A DNA stretch of 64,000 nt from Chiloscyllium plagiosum (taxonomy: Eukaryota), in NCBI RefSeq assembly GCF_004010195.1, contig NC_057718.1:10840460-10904459 (forward strand), in the 5' to 3' direction. Of the stretch, positions 14,452 to 64,000 are shown in pieces (positions within the stretch are counted from its first letter, which is position 1; the number at the start of each line of letters is the position of its first letter). The notes beneath the pieces were generated by a model, which was not told the origin of the DNA, did not search any database, and worked only from the letters and a program-made list of their open reading frames with translations. The position numbers and the translations under genes are program-made.

Positions 14452-15950
14452 GGAGAAAGTGAGGACTGCAGATGCTGGAGATCAGAGTAGAGAGCGGGGT
14501 GCTGGAAAAGCACAGCAGGTCAGGCAGCATCCGAGGAGCAGACGAATCAACGTTTTGGGCACATGCCCTTCATCAGGAATGAGGCTTGTGGGCCAGGGTC
14601 TCTGATAAGCTGGAGAGGGATGCGACTGGGGGGAAGGTAACTGGGAATGCAGTAGGTAGATGAAGGTTGGGGAGAAGGTGATAGGTCGGAGAGGAGGGTG
14701 GAGTGGATAGATTGGAAAGATGATGGACAGGTCAAGTGGGCGGTGCTGAGTTGGAGGCTTGGGCCTGGGATAATGTTTGGGGGAGGGTGTGGGGAAGAGG
14801 TGGGGAGGGAATGATGAAACTGGTGAAATCTACATTGATCACATGTGGTTGCAGGGTCCCAAGGCGGAAGACATTGGTGGTTAGGGCTTGGTTATGGAGG
14901 ATGCCCAGGACCTGTATGTCCTTGGTGGAGTGGGAGAGGGAGTTTAACTGTTCTACCAAAGGGTGGTGGGGTTGATTGGTGCGGGTGCCCCAGAGATGTT
15001 CTCTGAAATGATACACAAATAGGCGTCCTGTGTCCCCGATATAGAGGAGACCACATCGGGTGTAACAGATACAGTAGATGACATTTGTGAAAGTACAGGT
15101 AAATTTCTGTCAAATGTGCAAGGACCTTTGGGGCCTTGGAGGTGAGGGGGAAGGTGTGGATGCAGGTTTTGCACCTCCTGTGGTGGCAGAGCTGGTTGGG
15201 GGGGGGGCTGGAATCTGTCAAGGGAGCTACAGAGGGAATGGTCTCTCTGGAGTGCTGATAGAGGTGGGGAGGGAAAAATATCCCTCGTGGTGGGGTTTGT
15301 ATGTAAGTGGTGGATGTGGCGGAGGATGATGCGATGTATTCGGAGGTTGGTGGGGTGGAAGGTGAGGACCAGAGGGGTGGGATTCAAGGGCAGAGTTGCG
15401 GGAAGTGGAGGAGATGCACTGGAGGGCATGGTTGACCATGTGGGAGAGGAAATCGCAGTCTATGAAGGAGGAGGCCATGTTGGATTTTCAGTGGTGAAAT
15501 TGGTCCTCCTGGGAACAGATGTGGCAGAAGCAGAGGAATTGGGAATAAAGGATGGCATTTTTACAGGAGGCAAGGTGGAAGGTGGTGTAGTCCAGGTAAC
15601 TCTGGTAATTGGTGGGGTTGTAGTAGATGTCTGAGATTAGATGGTCGCCAAAGGTGGATGCGGAAAGGTCCAGGAATGGGAGGGAGGTGTCTGTGATAAT
15701 CCATGTGAATTTGAGGGTGGGGTGAAAGGTGTTAGTGAACCGTTCAACCTCCTTGTGGGAGTATGAGTTAGTGCCGAAACAGTCATTCATGTAGCAGAGG
15801 AAAAGGTGTGGGTTGGCGCTGGTGTAGTTGTGCAAGATGGACTGTTCCACATACACGACAAAGAGGCAGGGATAGCTGGGGCCCATGCGGGTGTCCATGG
15901 CTACCCTTTTGGTTTGGAGGAAGTGAGAGGATTGGAAGGATTTCTTCCAC
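14452..15950 (-). mobile_element. Penelope-like retroelement, 5'-truncated (RT, GIY-YIG region, terminus with mutated hammerhead)
   Basis: MDTRMGPSYPCLF...LFLCYMND...LPFLDL, HFREHL; terminus 14452-14580 with CUGAUGA...AAAA core. Confidence 0.9.
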
Positions 15951-16084
15951 GAGGCAATTTTCTGTCTCTTTACACCTCGTGATGTGTGTCAACAGTATTA
16001 ATTTTTCTTCTTGCATGGATTAAACTTCATTGGTCTCATTTGTTGACACTTCAGTTGAGATCTACTTTTTGATCATGATTTCTT

Positions 16085-16270
16085 CAGCAAGATTTGCACA
16101 ATGTTGCCAGGGCTGGAGGATTTGAGCTACAGGGAGAGTCTGTATAGGCTGTGGCTGTTTTCCCGCAAGTGTTGGAGGCTGAGGGGTGACCTGATAGAGA
16201 TTTATAAAATCATGAGAAGTGAGGATAGGGTAAATAGACAAAGTTTTTTGCCTGGGGTGGGGGAGTCCTT
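16085..16270 (+). mobile_element. CR1 LINE fragment
   Basis: MLPGLEDLSYRE...LRGDLIEIYKIM. Confidence 0.85.
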
Positions 16271-17050
16271 GTTGCAATTAGAGAGGTGGGGTTCAAGTGC
16301 GGAAGTGTGGCAAGTAGAGGTGTACACACCCTGGCTCGTGTGCTCATGTGCACCGCCTCCCGCCCTGGCTCGTGTGAAATGCTATCCCTTATTCCCAATT
16401 CCTCCCCTCCCACGTGGTGGATGATGCCCTCCAGCGTATTTTCTCCACTTCCCACACCTGTAACCACAAGGACAGAATCCCTCCAGTTCTCACCTTCCAC
16501 CCCACCAACCTCTGTATACATCGCATCATTCTCTACCATTTCCATCACCTAAGAACAGACCCCACCACCAGGGAAAAATTTCCCTCCCCACCCCAATCTG
16601 CGTTCTGGAGAGACCATTCCTTCCACGACTCCCTTGTTAGGTACATGGCCCCCCACCAACCTTCCCTCCACTCCCGGCACCCTCCCCCGCCACCACAAGA
16701 AGTGCAAAACCTGTGTCCACACCTCTCCCCTTACCTCCATCCAAGGTTCCAAAGGATCCTTCCACATTCAACCGAGATTTACCTGTACTTCCACACATGT
16801 CATCTACTGTGTCCATTGCTCCTGATGTGGTTTCCTCTACACTGGGGAAATAGGATGCCAACTTGCGGATCGTTTCAAAGGACATCTCTGGGACGCGCGC
16901 AGTAAACCATCTCATCGTCCCATAACCAAACATTTCAACTCCTCCACCCACTCTACAAAGGACATGCACGTCCTGGGCTGCCTCCATGCCAAATCCTAAC
17001 CACCCGATGTCTGGAGGAAGAACGCCTCATCTTCTGCCTTGGGATCCTTT
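16270..17050 (+). mobile_element. Penelope-like fragment (GIY-YIG region) with a short inverted 5' piece
   Basis: PVLTFHPTNL, CKTCVH...FTCTSTHVIYCVHC; 16270-16322 is reverse-oriented PLE sequence. Confidence 0.85.
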
Positions 17051-17092
17051 CTGGAGATTGACATCACAAAGCACCTACTTTCTTGGAGGTGC

Positions 17093-19985: not shown

Positions 19986-20184
19986 TGGGAGGCAAGCAGG
20001 AGGCTGGAAGAACACAGCAAGCCAGACAGCATCGGGAGGTGGAGAAGTCAATGTTTCTGGTGTAACCCTTTTTACGCCTGAAATGTTGACTTCTCCACCT
20101 CCTAATGCTACCTGGCTAGCTATGTTCTTCCAAGCTCCTGCGTGCCTACCTTGGATTTCAGTATCTGCAGTTTTTTTTGTCTCT
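19986..20184. mobile_element. Palindromic Penelope-terminus mini-element with 10-bp TSD
   Basis: Arms about 19991-20064 and 20072-20147 are reverse complements; TTCTAAAAGC at 19976-19985 and 20185-20194. Confidence 0.75.
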
Positions 20185-29848: not shown

Positions 29849-31455
29849 CTAGGTAGTTGTGGGAGTCGGTCGGTTTATAGTAAATGTCCGTGTTGAGTCG
29901 GTCGCCCGAGATAGAAATGGAGAGGTCTAGGAAGGGGAGGGAGGTGTTAGTAAAGTGGATGAACTGTTCAACCTCCTCGTGGGAGCACGAGGTAGCGCCG
30001 ATACAGTCATCGATGTAGCGGAGGAAAAGGTGGGGGGTGGTGCCAGTGTAGCTGCGGAAGATGGACTGTTCCACATATCCGACGAAGAGGCAAGCATAGC
30101 TGGGGCCCGTGCGGGTGCCCATGGCTACTCCTTTGGTTTGGAGGAAGTGGGAGGATTGGAAAGAGAAGTTGTTCAGAGTGAGGACCCGTTCAGTCAGTCA
30201 AGGAGGGTGTCAGTGGAAGGGTACTGGTTGGGTTGGTGGGAAAGGAAGAAACGGAGGGCTTTGAGGCCTTCGTGATGGGGGATGGAGGTGTATAGGGACT
30301 GGATGTCCATGGTAAAGACAAGGCGTTGGGGGCTGGGGAAGCGAAAATCATGGAGGAGGTGGAGGGCGTGGGTGGTGTCCCGAACGTAGGTGGGGAGTTC
30401 TTGGACTAAGGGAGACAGGACCGTGTTGAGGTATACAGAGATGAGTTTGGTGGGGCAGGAGCAGGCTGAGATAATGGGTCGGCTGGGCAGGAGGTAGAAA
30501 TGGGCGGTGCAGGGTTGTGGGACTATGAGGTTGGAGGCGGTGGATGGGCGATCCCCTGAGGGGATGAGGTTATGGATGGTCTGGGAGATGATGGTTTGGT
30601 GGTGGGAGGTGGGGTCCCACCTAGACTACACCTTCTCCCACCCTGCCCCCTGTAAAAACGCCACCCCATGTTCCCAATTCCTTCACCTCTGCCACATCTG
30701 CTCCCAGGAGGACCAATTCCAATACCGAACAACCCAGATGGCCGCCTTCAAAGACCGCAATTTCTCCTCAGACGTGATTGACGGTGCACTCCACCGCATC
30801 TCCTCCACTTCCTGCTCCTCTGCCCTTGAACCCCGCCCCTCCAATCGCCACCAGGACAGAACCCCACTGGTCCTCACCTACCACCCCACCAACCTCCAGA
30901 TACATCGTATCATCCTTCGTCATTTCCGCTACCTCCAAACAGACCCCACCACCAAGAATATTTTTCCCTCCCATCCCCTATCAACGTTCCGGAAAGACCA
31001 CTCGCTCCGTGACTCCCTCGTCAGGNNNNNNNNNNNNNNNNNNNNNNNNNNNNNNNNNNNNNNNNNNNNNNNNNNNNNNNNNNNNNNNNNNNNNNNNNNN
31101 NNNNNNNNNNNNNNNNNNNNNNNNNNNNNNNNNNNNNNNNNNNNNNNNNNNNNNNNNNNNNNNNNNNNNNNNNNNNNNNNNNNNNNNNNNNNNNNNNNNN
31201 NNNNNNNNNNNNNNNNNNNNNNNNNNNNNNNNNNNNNNNNNNNNNNNNNNNNNGCCTATCACCCTCACCTTAACCTCCTTCCACCTATCGCATTCCCAAC
31301 GCCCCTCCCCCAAGTCCCTCCTCCCTACCTTTTATCTTAGCCTGCTTGGCACACCTTCCTCATTTCTGAAGAAGGGCTTATGCCCAAAACGTCGATTCTC
31401 CTGCTCCTTGAATGCTGCCTGACTTGCTGCGCTTTTCCAGCAACACATTTTTCAG
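29849..31455 (+). mobile_element. Penelope-like element with 5' inversion (29849-30616 minus; 30617-31455 plus)
   Basis: Minus: MGTRTGPSYACLFVGYVEQ...FLRYIDD...YKPTDSHNYL. Plus: LDYTFSHPAPCKNA..., then the terminus with a hammerhead motif at 31366-31393. Confidence 0.88.
31026..31253. other. Assembly gap (228 N)
   Basis: Run of N inside the PLE. Confidence 1.
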
Positions 31456-33003: not shown

Positions 33004-33135
33004 AGATTATCACAGCCACCATGTGGACTGTAACAAGATTATTTTTGTGATTATTGTGGTGTACCTTGTTCTTGTGATCCTGTTAATATTCATTGAATTA
33101 AATTAATACAAATGCACAAATTCTGTTGACTGGAT

Positions 33136-33698
33136 ACCTGGTCAGGTCCACGCCCCCTACAACCCACCCTCCCATCCTGGCACCTTCCCCTGCCACTGCA
33201 GGAACTGCAAAACCTGCGCCCACACCTCCTCCCTCACCTCCATCCAAGGCCCTAAAGGAGCCTTCCACATCCATCAAAGTTTTACATCCACTAATATCAT
33301 TTATTGTATCCGTTGCTCCCGATGCGGTCTCCTCTACATTGGGGAGACTGGGCGCCTCCTAGCAGAGCGCTTTAGGGAACATCTCCGAGACACCCGCACC
33401 AATCAACCAAACCGCCCCGTGCCCCAACATTTGTCCTACCTGCCTATCTTCTTTTCCACCTATCACCTTCATCCCCTCCCCCACTCACCTATTGTACTCT
33501 ATGCTACTTTCTCCCCACCCCCATCCTCCTCTCACTTATCTCTCCATGCTTCAGGCTCTCTGCCTTTATTCCTGATTAAGGACTTTTGCCCGAAATGTCG
33601 ATTTTACTGCTCCTCGGATGCTGCCTGAACTGTTGTGCTCTTCCAGCACCACTAATCCAGAATCTGGTTTCCAGCATCTGCAGTCATTGTTTTTACCT
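33136..33698 (+). mobile_element. Penelope-like 3' fragment with internal deletion and terminus
   Basis: CRNCKTCAH, LYIGETGRLLAERFREHL (GIY-YIG); terminus nearly identical to the reverse complement of 63251-63376. Confidence 0.88.
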
Positions 33699-34521
33699 AT
33701 CTGGTTTGTATTGCAGAGTGATGCTAACAGTGTGGGATCAATTTCTGTACCACTTTCTCAACCTTGCTCCTCAGCTAAGGCATTGTGACCCTCATATTAA
33801 ATTGATGACCCAGTTATCTTGCTGTACCAAATGAGCAGCCTTATGGTCCTGAGACCATGCCAACTTTACCTTGCAAACTTGATTGTTGTTATTTCCATTG
33901 AACATTCAGTTAATCTGCTTTACTGCTTGGGAAGCACATATTGTGTGCCTATTTTCAAACTCTGTTTAAAACAAAATCAATATACGCACGTTCATTCATG
34001 TTCACATGAGCCTCCACACCATTGCATCCCAAATGCCAGGTTGTTTTTTTACCTGTCAGGCGAGTGAAAATTGGATACTGGTTTAAAGCCTGGGGTTGGG
34101 CACACTAATATTATTTTGGTTGTTCTGGGGCTGAGATATTTGAAATGAAATGTTCACTGGAATATAGGTTTGAAAGTTGTATGGCCTAGCGAAGCTGTTG
34201 GTCATTAATTGTAAAAGACTGAGTTCCTTTATGGAACTGATAGAATGGTTGCAACAGAGGAAGCTGTTGGCCATTGTGCCAGAACCAGGTCTCTTTAAGA
34301 GTAACGTCTCTGGTCCCACTTGCTGCCCTTTACCTGTAGCCATGTAAATGTTTTTCTTTTAGATGCTTATACAATTCCTTTCTGAAAGTCTCTGACCACT
34401 TTTCTGCATTAAAAAAAAAGTTCTTTCCCATGTTCCCAAGTTTATCTTAGTTTTGGTTTTTAATGCTGAATTTAGAATTGTTCATTTTGGTTTAATTGCA
34501 TGTTTACATTTTCATTCCAAG

Positions 34522-39829: not shown

Positions 39830-40168
39830 TAACTGTGGATCCTGGATATCAAACAAAATCAGATATTGCCAGAAAAGCTGAGCAGGTCTGGCAGCATCTG
39901 TGGAGGGAAATCAGAGGGTGATGGGCGTTTGGAACGCGTTGCCAGCAGAGGTGGTAGAGGCAGGCACAGTAGATTCATTTAAGATGCGTCTGGACAAATG
40001 CATGAGTAAATGGGGAGCAGAGGGATACAGATGCTTAGGAATTGACTGACAGGTTTAGACATTACATTTGGATAGGCTTAGGCTTGGAGGGGCGAAGGAC
40101 CTGTTTCTGGGCTGTAAATTTTCTTTTCTTTGTTAATATTTCATGTCCAGTGACCCTTCCTCAGCACT
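39830..40168 (-). mobile_element. Penelope-terminus element interrupted by a + strand CR1 3' end (about 39917-40132)
   Basis: gcaggtctggcagcatctgtggag...cagag | CR1 | ttaatatttcatgtccagtgacccttcctcag. Confidence 0.7.
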
Positions 40169-45071: not shown

Positions 45072-45199
45072 GGAGAAAGTGAGGTCTGCAGATGCTGGAG
45101 ATCAAAGTTGAAACTTTATTGCTGGAACAGCACAGCAGGTCAGGCAGCATCCAGGGAACAGGAGATTCGACGTTTAGGGCACAGGCCCTTCCTCAGGCC
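45072..45199 (-). mobile_element. 128-bp Penelope-terminus insertion with 12-bp TSD
   Basis: CTTGTTTAAGAT at 45060-45071 and 45200-45211. Confidence 0.88.
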
Positions 45200-58979: not shown

Positions 58980-59060
58980 AAAATGTGTTGCTGGAAAAGC
59001 GCAGCAGGTCAGGCAGCATCCAGGGAACAGGAGAATCGACGTTTCTGGCATAAGCCCTTC
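58980..59060 (-). mobile_element. 81-bp Penelope-terminus insertion with 13-bp TSD
   Basis: TTAATTGGGCATG at 58967-58979 and 59061-59073. Confidence 0.88.
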
Positions 59061-62680: not shown

Positions 62681-62807
62681 ATAAATCTGAAGATGATGCA
62701 GACCGAGAGGCGCAGTTGCTAGAACGAAGATTAACTCTAACTGAGGAGAGGAATGCTGTCATGGTCCCGTCAGCAGGAAGTGGAATCCCAGGATCCCCAG
62801 CGAAATG
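62681..62807 (+). CDS. KIF13B: KIF13B exon ~28 (KSEDDADREAQLLE...GSGIPGSPAKW)
   Basis: tttcag|ATAAAT...AAATG|gtttgt; 127 nt. Confidence 0.93.
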
Positions 62808-63247
62808 GTTTGTCCTAAAATTGATTAACCAAAATAAAATTCTTCAGCTGAATGTTGTGAATTGCCATGGTGAGAGCCACTGATAGACTCAGAGATGTAC
62901 AGCATGGAAGGAGCCATTGATTGAGTTATAGACATATACAGCACAGAAACAGACTCTTCAGTCCAACTTGTTCATGCTGACCAGATATCCCAACCCAATC
63001 TAGTCCCACCTGCCAGCACCTGGCCCATATCCCTTCAAACCCTTCCTATTCATATATCCATGAAGATGCCTTTTAAGTGTTGCAATTGTACTAGACTTCA
63101 CCACTTCCTCAGGCTGCTCATTCCATACATGTACCACCCTGTGCATGAAAAAGTTGCCCCTTAGGTCTTTTATATCTTTCCCCTCTCACCCTTAACCTAT
63201 GCCCTCTAGTTTTGGACACCCTCAACCCAGGGAAGAGACTTTGTCTA

Positions 63248-63473
63248 CTTAGGTAAAAACAATGACTGCAGATGCTGGAAACCAGATTCTGGATTAGTGG
63301 TGCTGGAAGAGCACAGCAGTTCAGGCAGCATCCGAGGAGCAGTAAAATCGACGTTTCGGGCAAAAGCCCTTCATCATTTATTCCTGATGAAGGGCTTTTG
63401 CCCGAAACGTCGATTTTACTGCTCCTCGGATGTTCCCTGAACTGCTGTGCTCTTCCAGCACCACTAATCCAGA
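63248..63473. mobile_element. Palindromic Penelope-terminus mini-element with 10-bp TSD
   Basis: Arms about 63287-63376 and 63385-63474 are near-perfect reverse complements; ACTTTGTCTA at 63238-63247 and 63474-63483. Confidence 0.9.
63378..63417 (+). ncRNA. Putative minimal type I hammerhead ribozyme (PLE-associated)
   Basis: auuc-CUGAUGA-A-GGGC-uuuu-GCCC-GAAA-C-GUC-gauu: intact core, stem II, loopless palindromic stem III (ACGU), predicted cleavage after C63411. Confidence 0.7.
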
Positions 63474-64000
63474 ACTTTGTCTAAATACTCTATCCATGCC
63501 CCGAATGATTTTATAAACCTCTATAAGGTCACCCCTCAGCCTGTGATGCTCTTGGGAATACAGCCCCAGCCTATTCAAATTGTCCCTATAGCTCAAATCT
63601 GAGGAGCCACGTAGGATCAACTTCCCAATATGGTCCCGCAGTCAGGGCAGTCGATAGAAACTGCCGTAAAGACTACTTTTTGCCTTCCTGTTGTAAGTCC
63701 CAGGTTTCCTGCCTGTCTCAGCAGTGGTCTCTGACTTTGAAGATAGCAGCCTTCCTTCATAGGAAAGCAGCCCCTGTATCTGACTGCTGAAAAATACAAC
63801 CCTGTTTCCAGCTGTCTGTTGAAGCCAAAGTACCCAGCCCTGTTGTCACCTTCCTGTTGTGTCTGGGCAACTCTGGAACCTGGTGACTGAAAACCCAATT
63901 TCAAAATTGCAAGCATCTCTTCTTTGTTCCATTTTCAAATGTGGTGTTACTCCTGTTTCTGTTACTCCTCCACATGCAAATACACAAGCTGTATTTAAAT

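Follow-up and report, generated by a model that had tools for sequence, protein, structure and literature searches.

The window (the whole stretch of 64,000 nucleotides of Chiloscyllium plagiosum DNA that was analysed) contains exons of a KIF13B-like gene on the + strand, and the insert described here lies in an intron of this gene, on its sense strand. The gene was identified by a motor-domain exon on the same strand, which matched KIF13B structures with an E value of 1.8e-28, the next kinesin family listed being at 1.8e-17. KIF13A was absent among the 60 structure matches listed for this exon, and the choice of 13B rather than 13A is in part our assumption. A KIF13B-like coding exon at 62681 to 62807 (+), with AG and GT ends and an exact match to an X5 contig over 62681-62808, has its end 440 nt upstream of the insert; the acceptor that follows, as judged from the locus L002, would lie at the window-equivalent position 64611, beyond the window.

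The insert interrupts a LINE-type repeat on the - strand, which we take to be CR1. The left part of this repeat (62917 to 63247) was delimited by empty-site alignment to its paralogues in the window (66-83%) and the right part (63474 to 63599) likewise by empty-site alignment. When the insert was deleted in silico, the flanks rejoined and gave an unbroken alignment across the site with three of the five window paralogues shown, the 10-mer of the direct repeat then occurring once; the remaining two had gaps at the insertion site. A paralogue at the start of the window had a sub-threshold RVT_1 match upstream (E 7e-5), and Pfam gave no name for the host exons adjoining the insert or for the 3' peptide of the interrupted repeat.

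The direct repeat ACTTTGTCTA was found at 63238-63247 and 63474-63483, with 226 bp in between. The target-site duplication is probably longer, at 14 bp with two mismatches (63238-63251 on the left and 63474-63487 on the right, identity 12/14), which would make the element 222 bp, because the paralogues run on as TTTA past the 10-mer and because 14-16 bp is the length of most duplications (18 of 25) at sister loci. The TTTA of the paralogues is one change from the left duplication copy. Two inverted arms of 90 nt (63287-63376 and 63385-63474) were measured with two mismatches (63326/63435 and 63328/63433), and both changes sit on the + arm by comparison with other copies; the folding z of the insert was -27 (200 shuffles). 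With the family numbered from the hammerhead C3 as 0, the tailed arm (63252 to 63376, - strand) spans +1 to +125 and the tail-less arm (63377 to 63473, + strand) spans -7 to +89. The arms are thus unequal: a tail of 35 nt (63252-63286, - strand, family positions +91 to +125) is present on the - arm only, and 8 nt of the centre (63377-63384, the hairpin loop and the first bases of the tail-less arm) are present on the + arm only.

The insertion is, on these letters, very young, because all eight CpG sites of the insert are intact, including all four of the tailed arm, and because the tailed arm is 100% identical to another genomic copy; its identity to the other scored full-length matches was 96-99%. 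The variant at 63433 and 63435 of the + arm was rejected as a subfamily mark, since it had two matches in the genome and the second lies in an older diverged copy. Two close substitution pairs (63484-63485 and 63433-63435) lie on the right-hand side of an otherwise pristine hairpin, for which multi-base mutation, repair marks or consensus errors may be considered. The original prediction had described a young 226-bp insert between 10-bp direct repeats, splitting one repeat copy on the sense strand of KIF13B about 440 nt past an exon and made of two head-to-head copies with arms of about 90 bp and about two mismatches, and this description was borne out in all of these respects.

Parent element and known insertions of its kind

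From its sequence, the insert is the stump of an abundant Neptune/Nematis-type Penelope-like element (PLE). A longer family copy in the window (33131 to 33699, +), 96.9% identical to the tailed arm over 127 nt and with its own hammerhead core mutated, connects the terminus with a C-terminal region of GIY-YIG endonuclease type (PF01541 above cut-off, E 1.2e-5), and so the Penelope terminus of the original prediction was confirmed; PF01541 was also above cut-off in L076. The endonuclease is of the CCHH type, with the motif IYCIRCSRCGLLYIGET (two cysteines between GIY and YIG) and then histidines in several copies. A CX4CxxC linker was found upstream of GIY-YIG, as CHRRNCKTC in L053 and L076 and as CHCRNCKTC in the window copy, and CX2-5CxxC at this place is given as a Neptune/Nematis mark in the available text of PMC8557442. 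The assignment to this type was made because of the linker before GIY-YIG together with the two cysteines within it. About 900 nt of the parent sequence were reached by an all-against-all search of the loci.

Copies were counted as exact matches in the 3.56-Gb genome. The arm 30-mer had 14,578 copies and the 34-nt hammerhead 14,212; the 31-mer ending at the short end had 13,153, the 32-mer entering the tail 9,012, and 186 copies read past the tail, which are candidate full-length elements. Similar head-to-head centres of up to 12 nt were found at 1,898 places, older subfamilies included. An open frame from L008:1744-1770 onward runs through the hammerhead and the tail and continues past the tail. 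Six further window copies belong to the same or older subfamilies (14464-14575, 20003-20060, 31367-31446, 33573-33699, 45086-45195 and 58985-59060); by eye, the cores of five are damaged, and the copy at 14575 (-) retains CUGAUGA and not GAAA. Older PLE coding fragments with broken frames, encoding linker-like and endonuclease-like peptides, occur on both strands at 15000-17060.

An inverted 5'-truncated copy with a tail of 30-40 bp at one end is the typical layout of EN+ PLE insertions (PMC8557442, in the part available), and the insert has this layout, with a one-sided tail of that size and a target-site duplication. The layout is therefore already published and the insert belongs to a known kind. 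It shares with the EN+ PLE insertions of PMC8557442 and PMC3846280, as far as the available parts of these describe them, the head-to-head pseudo-LTR arms, the one-armed tail (35 nt here), the short duplication, the strong 5' truncation and a parent with GIY-YIG and CCHH. It differs from them in that only the last 90-125 nt are present, with no coding sequence, and in its very high copy number; the duplications are mostly 14-16 bp here and 8-10 bp in the rotifer examples Pen2a_Av and Pen2_Av in the available text of PMC3846280.

The element Poseidon PAc of Anolis carolinensis (PMC11167929, in part) likewise has a hammerhead and, shortly downstream of it, two preferred 3' ends with a tail between them. 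Its main start lies 111-118 nt beyond the point where stem II begins, or at +119 to +126 in the numbering used here, near the long end (+124 to +128), the available text of PMC11167929 being silent on which start this is. The parent element here differs from PAc in its CX4CxxC linker, which is absent from Penelope/Poseidon.

Origin of the head-to-head arms

It is rather probable that the insert is an ordinary, very young PLE retrotransposition product made by two-nick priming, with the hammerhead as a passenger; separate priming at both target nicks, taken by itself, is given a similar, slightly better than even, standing. In this process, the GIY-YIG endonuclease of the element would nick both strands about 14 bp apart and reverse transcription would be primed at both nicks. 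The tail would result from a start at the downstream internal site (+125) at one nick, the start at the second nick being an upstream one, at about +90. Both cDNAs would end prematurely, at +1 and -7, close to the 5' border of the hammerhead, and would then be joined end to end. In the available part of PMC11167929, the lizard PLE protein is reported to nick and extend both strands, two internal starts bracket the tail, and a dimer is predicted.

The ends of head-to-head pairs were recorded in three sets of loci. Sample (a) took, by position, the first 52 arm 30-mer matches in a list of 100 and comprised 18 head-to-head pairs besides 30 solo ends. Sample (b) consisted of 40 loci from among the first 50 centres listed out of the 1,898, and sample (c) of the 30 best matches, biased to tailed copies like this insert. 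L013, from the best-match set and of mixed ages, was excluded from the pair counts. The family has two 3' end classes, the long end and a short end at about +90. In sample (a), a long and a short end were combined in 16 of the 18 pairs, the other two consisting of two long and of two short ends, respectively (p = 0.0013 vs 0.5); among the solo ends, 17 were long and 13 short. In sample (b), a duplication of at least 9 bp was found in 25/40 loci (three of them merely 9 bp and possibly due to chance), against 10/120 in the null; these 25 combined a long with a short end in 21 cases, had one end outside the bins in four, and in no case had two long or two short ends.

The reach of the two arms upstream was compared in 20 duplication-supported pairs from samples (a) and (c), where the tailed arm reached further in seven, the tail-less arm in nine (the studied insert, with an excess of 8 nt, included) and the two were within 2 nt in four, and in 26 short-centre loci, where the corresponding numbers were 13, 9 and 4 (equal); the two sets of nine have L002 and L050 in common. 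The tail-less arm was longer upstream by about 800 nt in L020 (1480-2600, 15-bp duplication) and by more than 500 nt in L078 (3230-4020, 14-bp duplication), extending in both into the endonuclease C-terminus and the 3' region. Because each arm in those nine of the 20 pairs holds sequence absent from the other, neither cDNA can have served as template for the other: fold-back of a tailed cDNA cannot supply the extra upstream bases, and fold-back of a tail-less cDNA cannot supply the tail. As far as genomic copies can tell, the unequal arms thus favour separate priming at both nicks over fold-back copying.

The alternative, a cDNA that folded back and primed its own copying, with a tail remaining on one side after the endonuclease had trimmed one end and with a later deletion changing the centre, is considered rather unlikely. 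Both of its main steps have been proposed for PLEs, self-priming for their inverted repeats (PMC3846280, in part) and resolution by the endonuclease for the tail (PMC8557442, in part), and the 13 short-centre loci with a longer tailed arm and the four with equal arms agree with it. The nine of 26 short-centre loci and the nine of 20 duplication-supported pairs with a longer tail-less arm speak against it, above all L020 and L078 with their hundreds of bases. At the studied insert the loop has the wrong orientation for folding of a tailed cDNA, and no primer pairing was seen; in the other four loci with the same centre, the loop is on the tailed arm, as fold-back predicts. The 8-nt excess at the studied insert could also have arisen from a later one-sided deletion in the palindrome centre.

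A point for fold-back and against two-nick priming is that the arms of a pair are nearly always of the same variant. In the arm-variant test (35 informative among 41 duplication-verified pairs, 8/41 coming from the biased sample (c)), the arms within a pair differed at 8.4% of the diagnostic non-CpG sites, compared with 31% when pairs were shuffled (0/5000); rare alleles in the arms were shared 14 times and unshared 90 times. Fold-back explains same-variant arms directly, and two-nick priming does so only on condition that a single RNA or source serves both primers. The clear mixed-subfamily pair is L094 (G000:C1:15308970-15309330), a young pair with a perfect 16-bp duplication whose arms come from two subfamilies and differ at 5/10 diagnostic sites, which is against fold-back; 2-4 differences were also counted in five further pairs, which are old copies, and on inspection by eye L061, L039 and L105 appear mixed too, their duplication being weaker or absent. 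The short arm of L094 stops early, at about +67, and so does the arm of the same subfamily in L105. It also counts against two-nick priming that, in the available text of PMC11167929, PAc had no difference in start site between the strands in vitro, where the first nick may fall on either strand, in contrast to the one start per arm of the genomic pairs here.

For a more specific version of two-nick priming, the chances are put at about even. A dimeric enzyme would carry out coordinated two-ended target-primed reverse transcription at nicks about 15 bp apart, with one nick always receiving the tail start and its partner the tail-less start. A single RNA would usually serve for both, and occasionally two RNAs would be used; the use of one RNA might proceed by strand displacement or on the two terminal repeats of a tandem transcript. 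If this is true, a single step would explain both the one-sided tail and the inverted repeats of PLEs, with no self-priming on an antisense template. How tandem and inverted PLE structures form is named as an open question in the available part of PMC8557442.

A comparable process is known in L1, where twin priming from opposite nicks produces 5' inversions, with an inverted segment within one target-site duplication; there, overlap between the two segments is minimal and the second start is not fixed, whereas here the arms overlap by about 90 nt and both starts are fixed. In the literature searched, which left key older papers outside, no report was found of shark PLE hammerheads or of twin priming in PLEs. 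The studied insert is a clean, almost unmutated record of a PLE insertion, and the end statistics supply a test that can be run in the existing lizard in vitro system.

The 5' ends in L005, L006, L007, L014, L018, L022 and L026 and in the listed centres often lie 1-12 nt upstream of the hammerhead core and not at the cleavage site, the loci in which this was seen best having been chosen for an intact core.

The hammerhead and its predicted folds

The + arm carries a minimal type I hammerhead (63380 to 63415), whose full core was read directly in the sequence, in line with the CUGAUGA/GAAA/GUC that the original prediction had placed on this copy. C3 is at 63384, CUGAUGA at 63384-63390, stem II (4 bp) at 63392-63403, GAAA at 63404-63407 and GUC follows with C17 at 63411, so that a core of the form CUGANGA / GAAA / NUH is complete on the + strand (63384-63411). 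The cut site is predicted to be after C63411. The - arm begins at U4 with A in place of C3, its core is incomplete and the 5' strand of stem I is absent; it does lack the first C, as had been predicted, but this exact cut is one of many junction positions in the family. Hammerhead models were absent from the Rfam scans, which the original prediction had put forward as a check, among 19 and 6 matches with E values up to 10; the Rfam microRNA hairpin matches were sub-threshold and caused by the palindrome, and they were discarded.

The hammerhead has the features by which minimal hammerheads are recognised in the available part of PMC4209133, namely an extra base after A9 (A63391), the G10.1-C11.1 pair (G63392-C63403) and a palindromic stem III without a loop (ACGU, 63407-63410). 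With the PLE minimal hammerheads of that source it shares the full core, the extra base between 9 and 10.1, G10.1-C11.1, the palindromic 15.2-16.2, the lack of loop 3 and the position in a terminal repeat. Stem II has 4 bp here and 7-8 there, and the hammerhead here is known from its sequence and predicted folds. Stem I consists of 2 bp, a U-U and 1 bp, with a predicted pair probability of about 0.03 in the arm alone, and is weaker than the 4-5 bp of the Schistosoma family hammerheads in PMC4209133 (in part), which also gives a stem I of 2 bp for Drosophila virilis. Dual hammerheads on opposite strands, 100-700 bp apart, have already been noted in the same partial source. Another hammerhead-like motif, with CUGAGGA and a longer stem II, occurs in the window at 40164 (-) and probably comes from another PLE family.

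In the predicted fold of the + arm alone, U4-G8 of the core were paired with the cleavage site, and in the predicted cofold of two free monomers a core-pairing duplex (-24.6 kcal/mol) came ahead of the dimer with stem II and stem III (-18.9 kcal/mol). Within the whole insert, the pair probability of stem I and stem II was 0.0, and a hammerhead-compatible fold was predicted to cost 48.5 kcal/mol relative to the hairpin. There may be little ribozyme activity to silence, because the + arm alone is predicted to be misfolded with a stem I probability of about 0.03. Minimal hammerheads were not cleaved when monomeric and only poorly when dimeric (PMC4209133; review PMC6765202; both in part), and the lizard PLE hammerhead was cut only with its protein, cleavage being unnecessary for insertion (PMC11167929, in part).

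These results bear on the reading that a ribozyme that would otherwise be active in the KIF13B pre-mRNA is silenced by the inverted arm, the insertion being tolerated thereby, and that the hairpin is edited or diced and affects the gene, which is considered very unlikely. An intronic duplex of 90 bp is a plausible ADAR substrate. The complete core on the sense strand and the predicted preference for the hairpin would suit such silencing, and retrozymes are reported to be under-represented in Xenopus introns (bioRxiv 10.64898/2026.07.22.740005). It is opposed by the predicted misfolding of the + arm, by the poor cleavage and protein dependence of minimal hammerheads cited above, and by the absence of an intact-core partner hammerhead on the + strand elsewhere in the 64-kb window; moreover, pairs of this layout are frequent (about 18, against 30 solo ends, in the sample taken by position), and conservation could not yet be visible in so young an insertion. 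The original prediction that the upstream antisense arm covers the ribozyme is upheld by the predicted hairpin, but self-silencing as a feature of this locus is not. As modelled, masking of the ribozyme is automatic in any head-to-head insertion and is not peculiar to the locus, because the antisense arm comes first whichever strand is transcribed; such centres number 1,898. With two-nick priming as the preferred origin, the hammerhead in the KIF13B pre-mRNA would be buried in the 90-bp hairpin, most likely uncut, and removed with the intron; the insertion, one of thousands, probably has no effect. A genome with well over a thousand such hairpins, some of them intronic, offers an opportunity to study the way a vertebrate deals with young dsRNA of non-Alu-like origin.

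Copying of the palindrome and integrity of the assembly

The original prediction had named the insert a palindromic mini-retroelement in its own right. That it is such a non-autonomous, retrozyme-like element copied as a unit is highly improbable, small though it is, with a target-site duplication and with an exact 30-nt centre that recurs, since many whole-unit copies with the same centre and ends would be expected and the centre was found at five loci only. The four other loci belong to other subfamilies and have the tail on the opposite arm, and the centres vary among the 40 junction loci fetched. Because just five loci carry the same centre, in different subfamilies and with the tail side differing, the palindrome is, judging by these copies, made anew at each insertion and is not a self-copying unit. 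Non-LTR retrozymes (bioRxiv 10.64898/2026.07.22.740005) are likewise short, non-coding and PLE-related with a type I hammerhead, but they are defined as head-to-tail tandems with a hammerhead per unit, whereas the arms here are head-to-head with a single intact core; identity with them was therefore rejected. At G000:C1:10199752-10201186, two head-to-head pairs with equal internal spacing lie 1,238 bp apart, perhaps through local duplication.

An assembly artefact, in the form of a fold-back read chimera, is the least probable reading: no contig of the runs X1, X5 and X10 spans the insertion and the two close substitution pairs (63433/63435 and 63484/63485) lie on its right side, but short-read contigs break anyway in a repeat of such copy number, the X1 contigs matched both unique flanks with 0 differences, and a chimera would account neither for the target-site duplication and the one-sided tail nor for flanks that join up again as a single repeat.

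Of the RNA run X21, 2% was read; no reads fell on the exon at 62681-62807, and other family copies dominated at the insert. T>C and A>G places numbered 13 and 2, respectively, in X21, and 11-16 and 1-4 in the contig runs, so that the changes in X21 are ascribed to family variation because about as many occur in the contig runs. At 63407 and 63418 in X21, C for A15.1 was seen in 94/133 reads of one orientation and was rare in the contig runs; it probably comes from one expressed copy elsewhere, with its core broken.
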